A DNA stretch of 64,000 nucleotides from Bacteriovoracaceae bacterium (GTDB taxonomy: Bacteria; Bdellovibrionota; UBA1018). The stretch spans positions 69,149-133,148 of the forward strand of contig CANFJX010000008.1 in assembly GCA_947447665.1 (NCBI GenBank), in the 5' to 3' direction. The notes under the pieces are model-generated. The model had not been told where the DNA came from, made no database searches, and was given only the letters and a program-made list of their open reading frames with translations. The position numbers were made by a program, and so were the translations under genes. Below, piece by piece: positions 54,745 to 59,889 of this stretch; positions within the stretch are counted from its first letter, which is position 1; each line of letters starts with the position of its first letter.

Positions 54745-55464
54745 CTAGGATTTGAGCTGGGACCGAAGGTGCTCTTGCGGCAGTCGAAACCAGGGTAACC
54801 CCGGTTTGAGATGGTGCAGATGATGGTACGCTCCGAAGTGATAACAGCTTACCAACGAGCTCCAGTAGGGCTGGACTGTATTGCGAGCATGGTGCTGGTC
54901 TTGAAAGGGTCGATTGCGTGAGTGGTGCGGGAGATAGGTTCCGAAGTAAAAGAGCTGGATTGCGCTTAAAAAGCTGGGGACCGCCCAAAACAACAGAACG
55001 TTAGGTTCTCTGAAGTGAAAGCCATGCATCAGAATTTGTGAGGCGATGGTCATCCATAAAAGCTGAGGGAGGCTCAGATAATGAGAAAAAAACCGGAGCA
55101 TCCAACTCAAGAATCCGGGTGAGTGACCCTGCTCGACTGAGTGAAAATCAGGGTCATTTTCAGAACCAACAAAGGCGTGGTGGTCGCTATGTTTGAGGAT
55201 AATGGAATCAAAGAGTAACCCGGCGTAGAGACCGGCTGCAATTCGACCGATCCACCGATTGACTCGAGGATAGTTCGGTGCCGCCGAACCATGACAAGCA
55301 TCGTGACTTGTGACAAAAAGCCCAACGCTTAGAAACTGTATCCAAGCGAACCATCCGAGGTTTCTAAAAAAATCAAAAGCAGAATAAATTTCCAAGTGAG
55401 TAAGCACATAGCTGACACTAAAAATCCAAGTAAGAATGATGCCAACTCCCATGAAAAGCGCCAT
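54745..55464 (-). CDS. crtW: beta-carotene 4-ketolase CrtW
   Basis: 239 aa. His boxes HDACHG, HSDHH, HHLHH, plus LYAG, NDPDF, SAIQLFYFGTYLPH and CYHFGAYHHLHHL...PWFRLP. Collinear with my recollection of Paracoccus/Brevundimonas CrtW. Confidence 0.8.
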   Translation of the reverse strand: MALFMGVGIILTWIFSVSYVLTHLEIYSAFDFFRNLGWFAWIQFLSVGLFVTSHDACHGSAAPNYPRVNRWIGRIAAGLYAGLLFDSIILKHSDHHAFVGSENDPDFHSVEQGHSPGFLSWMLRFFSHYLSLPQLLWMTIASQILMHGFHFREPNVLLFWAVPSFLSAIQLFYFGTYLPHHSRNRPFQDQHHARNTVQPYWSSLVSCYHFGAYHHLHHLKPGLPWFRLPQEHLRSQLKS

Positions 55465-55606
55465 AGACTCCTGAAGTTACCAAATAGGTCACAAAAATCC
55501 AGGCATTCCTGCCTTACACCTATCCCTCGGTTGCAGCACCTGGAGTATCAAGGAAATCGGAATTTTAATTGAAACAAGTAGTCGCAGCAGATACTATTCG
55601 GGAATC

Positions 55607-56404
55607 ATGATTTTGCTCGTTTTTATTAATTTAATTTCTATTTTTGGCTTCGCAACCTTTGGAATGCATCCAGAACTATTGGTCCGGTTTGAGTGGGCGC
55701 CGCCGATTTTTGCTGCATCCTATTCATTTTTTGCCCAGCTTCAGATCGCGGTTGGATTTGGAATTATGGCTTACGAATGCCAAAGGGCCTTTAAATCGCG
55801 TTGGATCAGATATTTGCTAGCTGCATCAGTCATTAGCTTTGTCATGGAATTTCTAGGGACAACTTTTGGGGTACCTTTTGGAAAATACTCCTACACTGCA
55901 CTTTTAGGATGGAAGATAGCAGGTCAGGTGCCATTACTGATTCCGCTGAGTTGGTTTTTTATGTCCCTTCCCAGCCTCTGGATTGCTGAACGTTTGCTCG
56001 GGGCCTATGGATCACCCTGGAGACGAGTTTTCCTGGGCTCACTCCTGCTCATGACCTGGGACTTCACTCTTGATCCTGCCATGAGTCACCTGACGCCATT
56101 TTGGCTCTGGGAAAGTTCGGGCTCAACCCTGCTCAATATGCCGATTTGGAATCTGGGAGGATGGTTTTTTACAGGGCTTCTCATTCTCTCGGCCTTTGAG
56201 CTTCTTGGATTTCCACGATCCCAACGTTGGTCAGACTCCCTCTTCCCTCTGAAGTTCTATTTCGCAAATCTTCTTCTCCCACTCGGTCTGGCTTTGGTAG
56301 CCCAGCTTTGGGTTTCGATTTTTGTCACTCTCGCAGTGATTCTGGGTTGCTACGGTCTTGCGCAGTTAACCAAAGAGAGCAGGCCCCTGCGGACGCCCTC
56401 ATGA
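55607..56404 (+). CDS. carotenoid biosynthesis membrane protein of the CruF family (carotenoid 1',2'-hydratase-like, Caroten_synth/DUF422)
   Basis: 7-TM, 265 aa. EFLGTTFGVPFGKYSYT matches the E.LGT.TG.PFG.Y.Y motif I recall for this family. Stop overlaps the next start (ATGA). Confidence 0.5.
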   Translation: MILLVFINLISIFGFATFGMHPELLVRFEWAPPIFAASYSFFAQLQIAVGFGIMAYECQRAFKSRWIRYLLAASVISFVMEFLGTTFGVPFGKYSYTALLGWKIAGQVPLLIPLSWFFMSLPSLWIAERLLGAYGSPWRRVFLGSLLLMTWDFTLDPAMSHLTPFWLWESSGSTLLNMPIWNLGGWFFTGLLILSAFELLGFPRSQRWSDSLFPLKFYFANLLLPLGLALVAQLWVSIFVTLAVILGCYGLAQLTKESRPLRTPS

Positions 56405-57075
56405 GGGGACAATACTCTGCCCGCTTTCGGAGGCTGTTTGATTTCTATCTCCAGCTCAAACTCAGGAGTGGCTTTGAGAAAGTGATCTTTGAGCTTGGGC
56501 AGATCCAAAATCAACTGAACCCTTCAGTACCCGTCCTATTCGTCTCCAATCATATGAGCTGGTGGGATGGTTTTTTTCTTTTAGAGCTCCAAAAAAAACT
56601 GACTCCAAATTTCAGCCACTTCACATTGATGCTGGAAAGTGAACTTACTCAATTCCCTTTTTTGCGCAAACTAGGGGCAGTCGGTTTGGTCCCCCATGAT
56701 CCATTCAGCGTGGCTCGGTCATTTTTGGAGCTTCGCCGCCTTCGCCGATCTTTGGGAGCCTTGAGTATTGGATTTTTCCCTCAAGGCGAGATCAGGCCTC
56801 AACAGTACCGGCCCCTCGGATTTCAAAAAGGGCTTGATCCTCTCATTCGCCTTCTCCATCCAATTCAGGTCGTACCGGTAGCTCTACACATCGAGCCCAT
56901 GCAAACGCCCAAGCCATCTGCCTGGATTCGGACCGGACGAATCAGGAGAAGTGACCAGGAAGCGATTCGAACTGATGACTTGGAGGACGAGATTCTCCAG
57001 TTACTAAAGATCTCCGCTCTTGATAAATCCTTGGAGCTCCTCCGTGGACCAATCGCTCAGGAGAGATCCGTTTGA
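56401..57075 (+). CDS. lysophospholipid-acyltransferase-family acyltransferase (CruD-like carotenoid glycoside acyltransferase candidate)
   Basis: NHMSWWDG is the PlsC-type HxxxxD catalytic motif. Translationally coupled on both sides. Confidence 0.6.
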   Translation: MRGQYSARFRRLFDFYLQLKLRSGFEKVIFELGQIQNQLNPSVPVLFVSNHMSWWDGFFLLELQKKLTPNFSHFTLMLESELTQFPFLRKLGAVGLVPHDPFSVARSFLELRRLRRSLGALSIGFFPQGEIRPQQYRPLGFQKGLDPLIRLLHPIQVVPVALHIEPMQTPKPSAWIRTGRIRRSDQEAIRTDDLEDEILQLLKISALDKSLELLRGPIAQERSV

Positions 57076-59058: not shown

Positions 59059-59062
59059 AAAA

Positions 59063-59091
59063 GCCCGGCAAACTCATTGGGTCTGCCGGGC
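59063..59091. terminator. bidirectional rho-independent terminator hairpin between the convergent blh and rhodopsin genes
   Basis: gcccggca-N13-tgccgggc stem, flanked by aaaaaa upstream and tt downstream. Confidence 0.5.
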
Positions 59092-59115
59092 TTAAGACTT
59101 CTTGAACGAACTAAC

Positions 59116-59889
59116 TTAGTGCGCGCCCTTTGGCAAGGATCCATCCGCTTCGGATTTAGCATAAGCAATCCAATAGATCATTACACCGTAAAAGGCTTTT
59201 GCCAAAACGTCAGAAACGGCATAACCTACTTGAACTCCGACCAGAGAGGCTTCGTGAGAAATGCCCATCATCGGAAACATATAGGTGATCGGGTAGAAGC
59301 CCCAAGTCGCCAAAACCAACAACCGAATGTTTTTCATGAGAACTTGTACATAGGGAGGCTGACCAGGAATGGTCGCGCCCAATTTTCCCCACAATACTGA
59401 GAGAATATAGATGAAAGGGATAGTGCTTAAGGTACCCCAGATAGCGCGAGTGGTCATATCACCAGAAATTTCGCCAGGATATCCCAAGACAATCATCAAA
59501 AAGGCAGCGATAGCTAGCTTACCGAAAAGACCTTCTCGCTCAGATTTAGGAAGGTTAAGAACGGCAACCAATTCGATCAGGAGCAATGGAACAGTCAAAA
59601 GCCAGTCAACATAACGATAAGCATCGTTGAAGGGCTTGCCTGAAGCTACATAAGAGCCGTTCGTGAGAGTAAAGGCTTCTTCCCAACTATTGAAAATACG
59701 GAAGTAGTGATAGCCAGCAATTGCAACGACGACTGAAGAAATGAGAAGAGCAGGACGATACTTCTCACCTACTTGAGTTCTTGCACCAGTGAAAAAAATA
59801 AAAGCTGCAAACATTGCGGCAATCGTAAATGACAACACATTGTACACCAGCATAAACTGTGACGATGTCAGCTGAATCATGCGATTCAT
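59116..59889 (-). CDS. microbial (type-1) rhodopsin, proteorhodopsin/xanthorhodopsin-like proton pump (DTE motif)
   Basis: 7-TM, 257 aa. Helix C RYVDWLLTVPLLLIE has Asp, Thr (+4) and Glu (+11), the DTE triad. Helix G SDVLAKAFYG carries the Schiff-base Lys. Leu at the PR-105-equivalent position. Confidence 0.85.
   Translation of the reverse strand: MNRMIQLTSSQFMLVYNVLSFTIAAMFAAFIFFTGARTQVGEKYRPALLISSVVVAIAGYHYFRIFNSWEEAFTLTNGSYVASGKPFNDAYRYVDWLLTVPLLLIELVAVLNLPKSEREGLFGKLAIAAFLMIVLGYPGEISGDMTTRAIWGTLSTIPFIYILSVLWGKLGATIPGQPPYVQVLMKNIRLLVLATWGFYPITYMFPMMGISHEASLVGVQVGYAVSDVLAKAFYGVMIYWIAYAKSEADGSLPKGAH

Follow-up and report, generated by a model that had tools for sequence, protein, structure and literature searches.

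Organization of the six-gene island

In a 64,000-nucleotide (nt) stretch of GenBank assembly GCA_947447665.1 (contig CANFJX010000008.1; hereafter the window, meaning the whole of the DNA analyzed), six intact open reading frames (ORFs) lie side by side at positions 54745 to 59889, encoding a rhodopsin, a Blh/Brp-type dioxygenase and four putative carotenoid-tailoring enzymes. Searches of Pfam and NCBIfam placed all six in the families, and at the coordinates, given in a preliminary description of this DNA made from its letters. The host is an uncultured freshwater Bdellovibrionales bacterium represented by a metagenome-assembled genome (MAG). An identical rhodopsin sequence, in constant gene order, occurs on contigs of MAGs GCA_947372815.1 and GCA_947380695.1 and of several lake metagenome assemblies, and the nearest species representative, a "Bdellovibrionales bacterium" MAG, has a rhodopsin 94% identical to that of the window. 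The features of the island are as follows.

54745..55464, minus strand: crtW-like ketolase, 239 aa (PF00487, 8e-23)
55465..55606, no strand: crtW/cruF divergent intergenic region, holding a sigma-70-like site
55569-55597, within that region: sigma-70-like site from a promoter scan, TTGAAA-17-TACTAT, ending 9 nt before the cruF ATG
55607..56404, plus strand: CruF-family carotenoid 1',2'-hydratase, 265 aa (PF04240, 7.5e-44)
56401..57075, plus strand: PlsC-type acyltransferase, CruD-like, 224 aa (PF01553, 3e-8)
57072..58208, plus strand: GT2 glycosyltransferase, CruC-like, 378 aa from TTG (PF00535, Glycos_transf_2, 8e-19)
58195..59058, plus strand: Blh/Brp dioxygenase, 287 aa (PF15461, 7e-31)
59061..59093, no strand: terminator-like hairpin, 13 pairs, 8 of them G-C
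59116..59889, minus strand: xanthorhodopsin-clade rhodopsin, predicted outward proton pump, 257 aa (PF01036, Bac_rhodopsin, 1.6e-34)
60020..60049, minus strand: sigma-70-like site from the same scan, TTAACA-18-TAAAAT, matching at 10 of 12 positions, about 130 nt ahead of the rhodopsin start codon

The cruF, acyltransferase, GT2 and blh genes appear to form a single translationally coupled operon, with crtW divergent and the rhodopsin gene convergent behind a shared hairpin. All of the gene junctions described earlier are present in the sequence: the cruF stop overlaps the acyltransferase start at 56401 (ATGA), the acyltransferase stop overlaps the GT2 start at 57072 (TTGA), and the GT2 end and blh start share 14 nt (ATGAAACTACTTAA, 58195-58208), the acyltransferase gene overlapping its neighbors on both sides. 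The hairpin said to separate blh from the convergent rhodopsin gene was also found; it lies between the two stop codons (59058 and 59116), coincides with inverted repeat I10, and on the minus strand, downstream of the rhodopsin gene, leads into a T-run. Automatic gene callers picked a later GT2 start on this organism's contigs (ATG 57117, 363 aa), but we favor TTG 57072 because an AGGAG Shine-Dalgarno-like sequence lies upstream of it, the hydrophobic N-terminal segment is kept in homologs, and the sister-species GT2 is called as 378 aa, overlapping the acyltransferase stop. The two sigma-70-like sites are candidate promoters by their match to the consensus. The one upstream of cruF has a counterpart in the corresponding locus of a sister species (L007), TTGATT-17-TACGAT, placed equally far from the cruF ATG. 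A comparison of the crtW/cruF and rhodopsin upstream regions yielded no common operator, just A+T-rich 8-9-mers.

A xanthorhodopsin-clade pump with a keto-type carotenoid pocket

By homology, the rhodopsin belongs with the pumps of the xanthorhodopsin clade. Among solved structures it scored best against Gloeobacter rhodopsin (GR; 6nwd, 8.5e-92), psXR (9wfa), Kin4B8 (7ytb) and the xanthorhodopsin of Salinibacter ruber (XR; 3ddl, 1.4e-83), all at 58-60% identity, and NQ pumps (about 1e-30) and proteorhodopsins (about 1e-19) in the PDB matched far more weakly. The alignment located the DTE proton-pump motif (D95/T99/E106) and the Schiff-base lysine (K231) that had been read from the sequence at first, as well as D227 and L103. 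His61, in an "AGYHYF" segment aligned with the "AGYHYF" of XR, is presumably the equivalent of XR His62, the partner of the primary Asp.

The glycine that opens the antenna site, for which alignment to XR and GR had been suggested as a check, is present (G152, aligned with XR G156 and Kin4B8 G153), and further residues of the predicted pocket are T156, N187, L193, I201, Y203, M204, M207 and M208. Among the nine XR residues listed as salinixanthin contacts (PMC4094778), seven are kept in the window rhodopsin (G156, T160, N191, L197, G201, M208 and M211, in XR numbering); F157 is replaced by Thr, as in GR, and L148 lies within an XR-specific insertion that has no counterpart here. The floor of the pocket is the most telling part. 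At the positions of Y203/M204/M207/M208, XR has Y/M/M/A, GR has Y/L/M/L and Kin4B8 has Y/A/S/Y, so that the window protein, with M204, M207 and M208, has a hydrophobic floor like XR and GR, whereas that of Kin4B8 is polar. Kin4B8 holds zeaxanthin or lutein by the 3-hydroxyl, through Ser208 and Tyr209, and its S208A substitution lowers zeaxanthin binding to 2%, while XR and GR both use 4-keto carotenoids (PMC12308411). Because Met207 and Met208 stand at the Ser208 and Tyr209 positions, hydrophobic as in XR and GR, we assign the window pocket to the keto type, and this assignment fits the gene content of the island, since it has a ketolase and no ring hydroxylase.

Retinal supply

The Blh protein scored above the cutoffs of both of its family models (TIGR03753, 120.6 bits with a cutoff of 95.25; PF15461, 108 bits with a cutoff of 28) and has His residues at positions 40, 91, 210 and 217. 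It stands alone in the window, whereas in related loci (L008, at 10855-12861, and L009, L013-15, L019 and L101) Blh is the C-terminal half of a lycopene cyclase::Blh fusion of about 670 aa, with an N-terminal lycopene cyclase domain (PF05834, 5e-40) followed by PF15461 (2e-29). Such a fusion would couple beta-ring formation straight to retinal production.

In one other Bdellovibrionales locus (L016, MAG GL65_DN_concoct_201), an RPE65-family carotenoid cleavage oxygenase (8361-9920; PF03055, 4e-104) takes the place of Blh. It adjoins a Kin4B8-like rhodopsin with pocket residues A/S/W, and no crt genes occur in the 13-kb locus, so retinal may be reached there by another route, possibly from exogenous carotenoids.

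Tailoring enzymes and their wider distribution

The ketolase scored by far best against the CrtW model of NCBIfam (NF045690; 201.6 bits, covering model positions 26-252 of 257), with CrtR reaching just 45 bits, and it has the three His boxes of the membrane di-iron family (H54DACH58, H92SDHH96 and H214HLHH218). Because 201.6 bits is under the equivalog cutoff of 350, we file it as CrtW-like and not as an equivalog. For CruF, the score against PF04240 was 150.6 bits, with a cutoff of 25, and those against NF045693 (127 bits versus 400) and TIGR03460 (101 bits versus 154.7) were both under the equivalog cutoffs; the protein is 86% identical to its L007 counterpart. The hydratase and acyltransferase genes matched the families named for them at the outset (PF04240 and PF01553).

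The GT2 protein scored 43.3 bits against the CruG 2'-O-glycosyltransferase model (NF045692, cutoff 600) and is not assigned to that family; it shares 36% identity (E = 6e-42) with the glycosyltransferase of the Thermus carotenoid cluster. The acyltransferase has weak homology to the acyltransferase of the same cluster (28% identity over 141 aa, E = 6e-7), and its motifs NH51xSWWD56 (HX4D) and FPQGE are invariant across 18 homologs. The adjacent Thermus pair is labeled CruC and CruD in PMC4021367, the CruC label being itself an annotation.

When the acyltransferase alignment was scanned against metagenomes, 80 loci were obtained. A GT2 relative lay about 0.65-0.8 kb downstream of the acyltransferase start in 41 of them, consistent with adjacency, and the loci also held genes for CrtI-like proteins (41), CruF (31), CrtB (21) and CrtW (11). 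This gene content marks acyltransferase-GT2-CruF as a widespread carotenoid acyl-glycoside module. A rhodopsin accompanied it in just one locus (L101, Oligoflexales-type); a keto-carotenoid acyl-glycoside module exists apart from rhodopsins in other organisms, and its joining with opsin and blh is particular to a Bdellovibrionota/Oligoflexia clade. The preliminary description had regarded a CrtW-type ketolase as a variant of the known pathway. Its place beside acyltransferase, GT2 and CruF is not unusual, as this module recurs in many metagenomic carotenoid clusters with no rhodopsin nearby. On metagenome contigs L128, L155, L158, L168, L124 and L152 we noted a recurrent order of CrtI-like gene, acyltransferase, GT2, CruF and CrtW, rhodopsin-free within 9 kb.

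A discrete block under purifying selection

A blastn comparison of L007 with the whole window returned a single match, of L007 7656-12805 to window 59928-54751 (78.6% identity over 5183 nt), and the homology begins and ends at the six genes. The flanks are unrelated: L007 and L183 have malic enzyme and RidA genes on one side and rpmB, DUF218 and Ham1 genes on the other, and the window has genes for an XRE-type regulator, a methyltransferase, a rhodanese, an AAA_14 ATPase, BrnT/BrnA and tRNA-His on one side and for a beta-barrel protein on the other. Ratios of nonsynonymous to synonymous substitution rates (dN/dS) between the window and L007, at a dS of about 1, came to 0.035 for rhodopsin and 0.11-0.15 among the five others (crtW 0.12, cruF 0.11). 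All six genes are under purifying selection and travel as one unit. From these ratios we take the island to be functional in this reduced form, and a carotene substrate is therefore available to it. Around the island there were no convincing flanking repeats or mobile-element signatures, with one tRNA-His gene 5 kb away, and an Rfam scan of 49-64 kb of the window gave that tRNA as its sole match.

Linkage and phylogeny of related loci

We surveyed linkage in 80 loci, the best xanthorhodopsin matches among species-representative genomes. Eight of the 80 combined rhodopsin with Blh, GT2, acyltransferase and CruF, with a full CrtW in all except L008, and the hosts were MAGs of Bdellovibrionales, Pseudobdellovibrionaceae, Bdellovibrio, Oligoflexia and Oligoflexales, together with one unclassified MAG. 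No tailoring genes were found near the cyanobacterial, Chloroflexota or other rhodopsins among the 80. Across all searches, the linked set was seen in L007, L008, L009, L011, L013-15, L019, L101 and L183, again with a full CrtW everywhere but in L008. It takes two main forms: a larger cluster, in L008, L009, L013-15, L019 and the metagenomic L101, adds crtE, crtI and crtB and the cyclase::Blh fusion and spans about 10 kb from geranylgeranyl diphosphate (GGPP) synthase to opsin, and a reduced six-gene form is found in the window, L007, L183 and L186. L011 has no backbone genes nearby, a different gene order and one extra ORF. Its cluster (Oligoflexia MAG LF-bin-178) has as neighbors a DNA photolyase gene (2367-3644), a fasciclin-domain protein gene (11814-12239) and a gene for a FadL/TodX-type outer-membrane transporter (12671-13966); a fasciclin-domain gene also lies near the rhodopsin of L016. 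The idea, taken from the FadL-type gene, that an outer-membrane transporter travels with the reduced island was dropped, as the flanks of L007 and L183 are housekeeping genes.

In a neighbor-joining tree of 87 rhodopsin sequences with 40 bootstraps, the cluster-linked rhodopsins were monophyletic in 36 of 40 replicates, and Kin4B8 fell elsewhere, with L062 and L016. Tailoring genes are linked to 11 of the 12 rhodopsins of the clade. The exception, L010 (10001-17029, Oligoflexia MAG GFS_2541), has the order rho-crtE-crtI-crtB-crtY-blh, a retinal-only cluster in which no homologs of the tailoring genes were found even at E = 0.1. Its pocket has changed at four positions (T/S156M, Y203F, M204F and M207T), whereas the other eleven members keep all four, and this single case points to a coupling between pocket residues and pigment genes. 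In the otherwise complete cluster of L008, a 32-residue CrtW remnant remains beside cruF (15468-15563; 44% identity, E = 7e-4), and the ketolase appears to have been lost in that lineage.

Predicted pigment and proposed antenna function

Genetic work in Rhodothermus provides the frame for a predicted pathway. There, CruF makes the 1'-hydroxyl, CruC and CruD then add a sugar and an acyl group at this C-1' hydroxyl, the ketolase works on the ring independently, and the enzymes for the 2'-hydroxyl and the 3',4' double bond are unidentified (PMC7414004). By analogy, the CruF of the island would hydrate the 1',2' bond at the open end of gamma-carotene, the CruC-like GT2 would add a hexose to the resulting 1'-OH, the CruD-like acyltransferase would esterify that hexose with a fatty acid, and the CrtW-like enzyme would introduce the 4-keto group of the ring. 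This predicts a 4-keto-gamma-carotene 1'-glycoside ester, equivalent to salinixanthin minus its 2'-OH and possibly minus the 3',4' double bond. The preliminary description had proposed a salinixanthin-like tailoring set, and the four enzyme families are indeed present, but the island holds no gene for the 2'-OH or for 3',4'-desaturation, and the predicted pigment is for this reason a relative of salinixanthin and not salinixanthin itself. The sugar position must also be amended: "2'-O-acyl-glycosyl" had been written, whereas salinixanthin-type pigments carry the CruC/CruD acyl-sugar at the C-1' hydroxyl (PMC7414004).

In the proposed photosystem, Blh would cleave beta-carotene to all-trans retinal, which would be bound to K231. 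The keto ring of the glycoside ester would occupy the G152 opening next to the retinal ring, resting, as in XR and GR, on a hydrophobic floor, here of Met residues, and the pigment would pass blue-green excitation energy to the retinal of a green-absorbing pump. The C40 backbone (crtE, crtB, crtI and cyclase) would have to be supplied from outside the island. On balance, the block probably combines a xanthorhodopsin proton pump, its retinal enzyme and the enzymes for a ketocarotenoid glycoside ester that serves as its antenna, although we hold this with restrained confidence. We infer the antenna function from gene content and pocket residues; what stands firm of the photosystem first described is an XR-clade pump with the fenestration glycine in a discrete conserved unit, and it is the antenna role that is tempered by the behavior of Kin4B8, which binds salinixanthin without energy transfer.

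Several observations weigh against this interpretation. The majority of the pocket residues given above recur in xanthorhodopsins encoded at loci with no tailoring genes. Kin4B8 is itself from Bdellovibrionota, and its binding of salinixanthin without transfer means that a binding-site Gly and a keto-carotenoid are insufficient for an antenna. L008, in which crtW is a mere remnant, keeps the same pocket residues; the NCBIfam CrtW, CruF and CruG models were matched solely beneath their equivalog cutoffs; and backbone genes for this organism were not found in the window, in about 79 kb of its contig or among the best 120 of thousands of homologs.

Part of this evidence would suit an account in which the glycoside ester is an ordinary membrane or photoprotective pigment, clustered with the rhodopsin through a shared carotene pool and a common usefulness in light, while the rhodopsin works with retinal alone or with some other antenna. 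The acyltransferase-GT2-CruF(-CrtW) module is rhodopsin-free in 79 of the 80 metagenomic loci, for which reason its default role may be that of a membrane pigment; Thermus, which also has it, makes a membrane carotenoid with it; and both the missing energy transfer from salinixanthin on Kin4B8 and the unchanged pocket of L008 agree with such a role. We nevertheless find it rather unlikely for the window, for four reasons. In this lineage the backbone genes left the cluster while the tailoring genes remained beside rhodopsin and blh; the match to the sister species covers the six genes and goes no further; in L010, the one clade member where tailoring genes are missing, the pocket retains neither the conserved Tyr nor its two Met residues; and the window pocket is of the XR/GR keto type and not of the Kin4B8 hydroxy type.

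Source of the carotenoid backbone

The island had been said to carry every accessory function, and this does not hold, as crtE, crtB, crtI and lycopene cyclase are absent both from the window (positions 1-64000) and from the source contig over about 79 kb, by Pfam and by tblastn with the proteins of relatives. In searches with a CrtB profile and a CrtI sequence, none of the best 120 CrtB relatives or the best 120 CrtI relatives, out of thousands, had the organism's sample footprint. Three candidates for its own crtB or crtI (P0066, P0055 and P0172) proved to come from other samples or organisms, P0172 being on a contig of 62% GC, and a 480-aa amine-oxidase gene 8 kb upstream of the window gave no match to CrtI.

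The simplest reading is that the backbone genes have been relocated elsewhere in the genome. Alternatively, the lineage may have shed crtE, crtB, crtI and the cyclase altogether, with carotenes from prey or the environment being turned by the six genes into retinal and a keto-carotenoid glycoside-ester antenna. The failure of the searches just described would be expected in that case. A backbone-less island is kept in at least three species-level lineages (the window; L007/L183; L186), purifying selection on its genes implies that a substrate exists, and the Bdellovibrionales locus L016 combines an RPE65-type oxygenase with an absence of crt genes nearby. However, our view covers a small part of the genome and the homologs compared were the best 120 of thousands; CruF requires an open psi end group, that of gamma-carotene or lycopene, and likely prey contain little of it; near relatives synthesize their own backbone; and crtB and crtI are present in the cultured Bdellovibrio sp. 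SKB1291214 and Peredibacter starrii. With relocation being simpler as well, we judge carotene uptake improbable. That the island is a decaying, non-functional remnant of a full cluster is more improbable still, to the point of being negligible, for although four backbone functions that relatives keep in their clusters are missing from it, its six ORFs are intact with catalytic motifs kept, and comparison with a sister species whose island is reduced in the same way gave dN/dS of 0.04-0.15 at a dS of about 1.

Comparison with known systems

The predicted system, a pump with a keto-carotenoid antenna, is of a known kind, that of XR and GR, in a new host group and with a CrtW-like in place of a CrtO-type ketolase. 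The XR/salinixanthin system of S. ruber (PDB 3DDL) resembles it in both opsin and pigment: the rhodopsins belong to the same clade (58% identity, with the DTE motif and G152 aligned with G156), and the pigment predicted here would, like salinixanthin, be monocyclic, with a 4-keto group and an acylated sugar at C-1'. In S. ruber, by contrast, the ketolase is CrtO, which is CrtI-like, and no CrtI-like gene occurs in the window; the tailoring genes of the window are all contiguous with the opsin, and its host is a freshwater member of the Bdellovibrionales and not a halophilic member of the Rhodothermia. GR (6NWD) is the best-scoring solved relative (8.5e-92, 59% identity) and has the same pocket type (G, T, T, Y and a floor of M/L). 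It is reported to use 4-keto carotenoids, echinenone or salinixanthin (PMC12308411), although its echinenone carries no glycoside ester, and cyanobacterial xanthorhodopsin genes, unlike that of the window, have no carotenoid or blh genes nearby (PMC12779958). Kin4B8 (7YTB/8I2Z) shares with the window protein its family, the fenestration Gly, a freshwater habitat and an origin in Bdellovibrionota, but at 60% identity it belongs to a separate clade and has the Ser208/Tyr209 floor and lutein or zeaxanthin, where the window has Met207/Met208.

For the tailoring genes, the Thermus thermophilus megaplasmid cluster (CruD TT_P0061 and CruC TT_P0062; thermozeaxanthin) has a like pair of acyltransferase followed by glycosyltransferase, the acyltransferase being 225 aa there and 224 aa here. 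Its product, in contrast, is a zeaxanthin glucoside ester with the sugar at a ring hydroxyl; CruF and CrtW are absent from that stretch and rhodopsin from the cluster. The "actinoxanthin" system of acI Actinobacteria has an XR-like pump with the Gly, a predicted operon with CruF and acyltransferase, and a predicted hydroxylated, glycosylated and acylated gamma-carotene derivative (bioRxiv 10.1101/367102). It differs in having opsin and blh away from the tailoring genes, a glycosyltransferase assigned as CruG, genes for CrtA and CrtD, and an uncertain ketolase. Proteorhodopsin and xanthorhodopsin cassettes (opsin, crtEIBY and blh) likewise pair an opsin with blh, and the relatives L008, L013 and L101 add crtE, crtI, crtB and cyclase. 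The opsin-crtEIBY-blh cassettes provide retinal only, whereas the window adds four antenna-type tailoring genes and has no backbone genes. Our literature search found no description of an opsin, its retinal enzyme and all antenna-tailoring enzymes side by side, the acI "actinoxanthin" operon being the nearest precedent.

Native antennae of environmental xanthorhodopsins are mostly unknown, since the hosts are uncultured, and Kin4B8, the one Bdellovibrionota protein studied, was characterized with pigments from lake-water extracts. In the present case a pigment can be predicted from the genome: a sister clade of rhodopsins in the same phylum is linked to genes for a ketolase, a hydratase, a glycosyltransferase and an acyltransferase, and has a pocket like those of XR and GR. 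This could open a way to identify the native antenna of a freshwater xanthorhodopsin from an uncultured host, and the GGPP-synthase-to-opsin clusters of relatives, at about 10 kb, are small enough for expression as a whole. The Met/Met floor of the window protein and the Ser/Tyr floor of Kin4B8 also make a natural pair for the choice between keto and hydroxy antennae, and the backbone-less island raises the question of where a putative predator obtains its carotene.

Other features of the window

On the crtW side of the island, the segment at 49859-52312 begins with tRNA-His (49859-49934), continues with a BrnT/BrnA-like toxin-antitoxin pair and an AAA_14/DUF4143 ATPase gene, and leads towards the island; it looks like a variable region, with an AAA_14 paralogue its only element shared with L007. 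Two genes near the rhodopsin gene were found in this species only: a plus-strand gene (60319-61062), beside it, for a putative beta-barrel outer-membrane protein of 247 aa with a weak OMP_b-brl match (0.003), and a minus-strand gene (61508-62713) for a Gly/Ser/Asn-rich repeat protein of 401 aa with no Pfam match. Elsewhere, the window encodes a Bd3614-type deaminase and chemotaxis and sensor proteins. A single 1521-aa protein (29296-33861, plus strand) joins CheB methylesterase, CheR methyltransferase, several PAS domains, a histidine kinase and a receiver. It also encodes a protein with a C-terminal RING finger (9780-10976, minus strand; zf-RING_2, 1.3e-8) and a TcdA/TcdB-type glycosyltransferase (4880-6067, plus strand; 5e-16), domains that are unusual in free-living bacteria and more typical of eukaryote-directed effectors.

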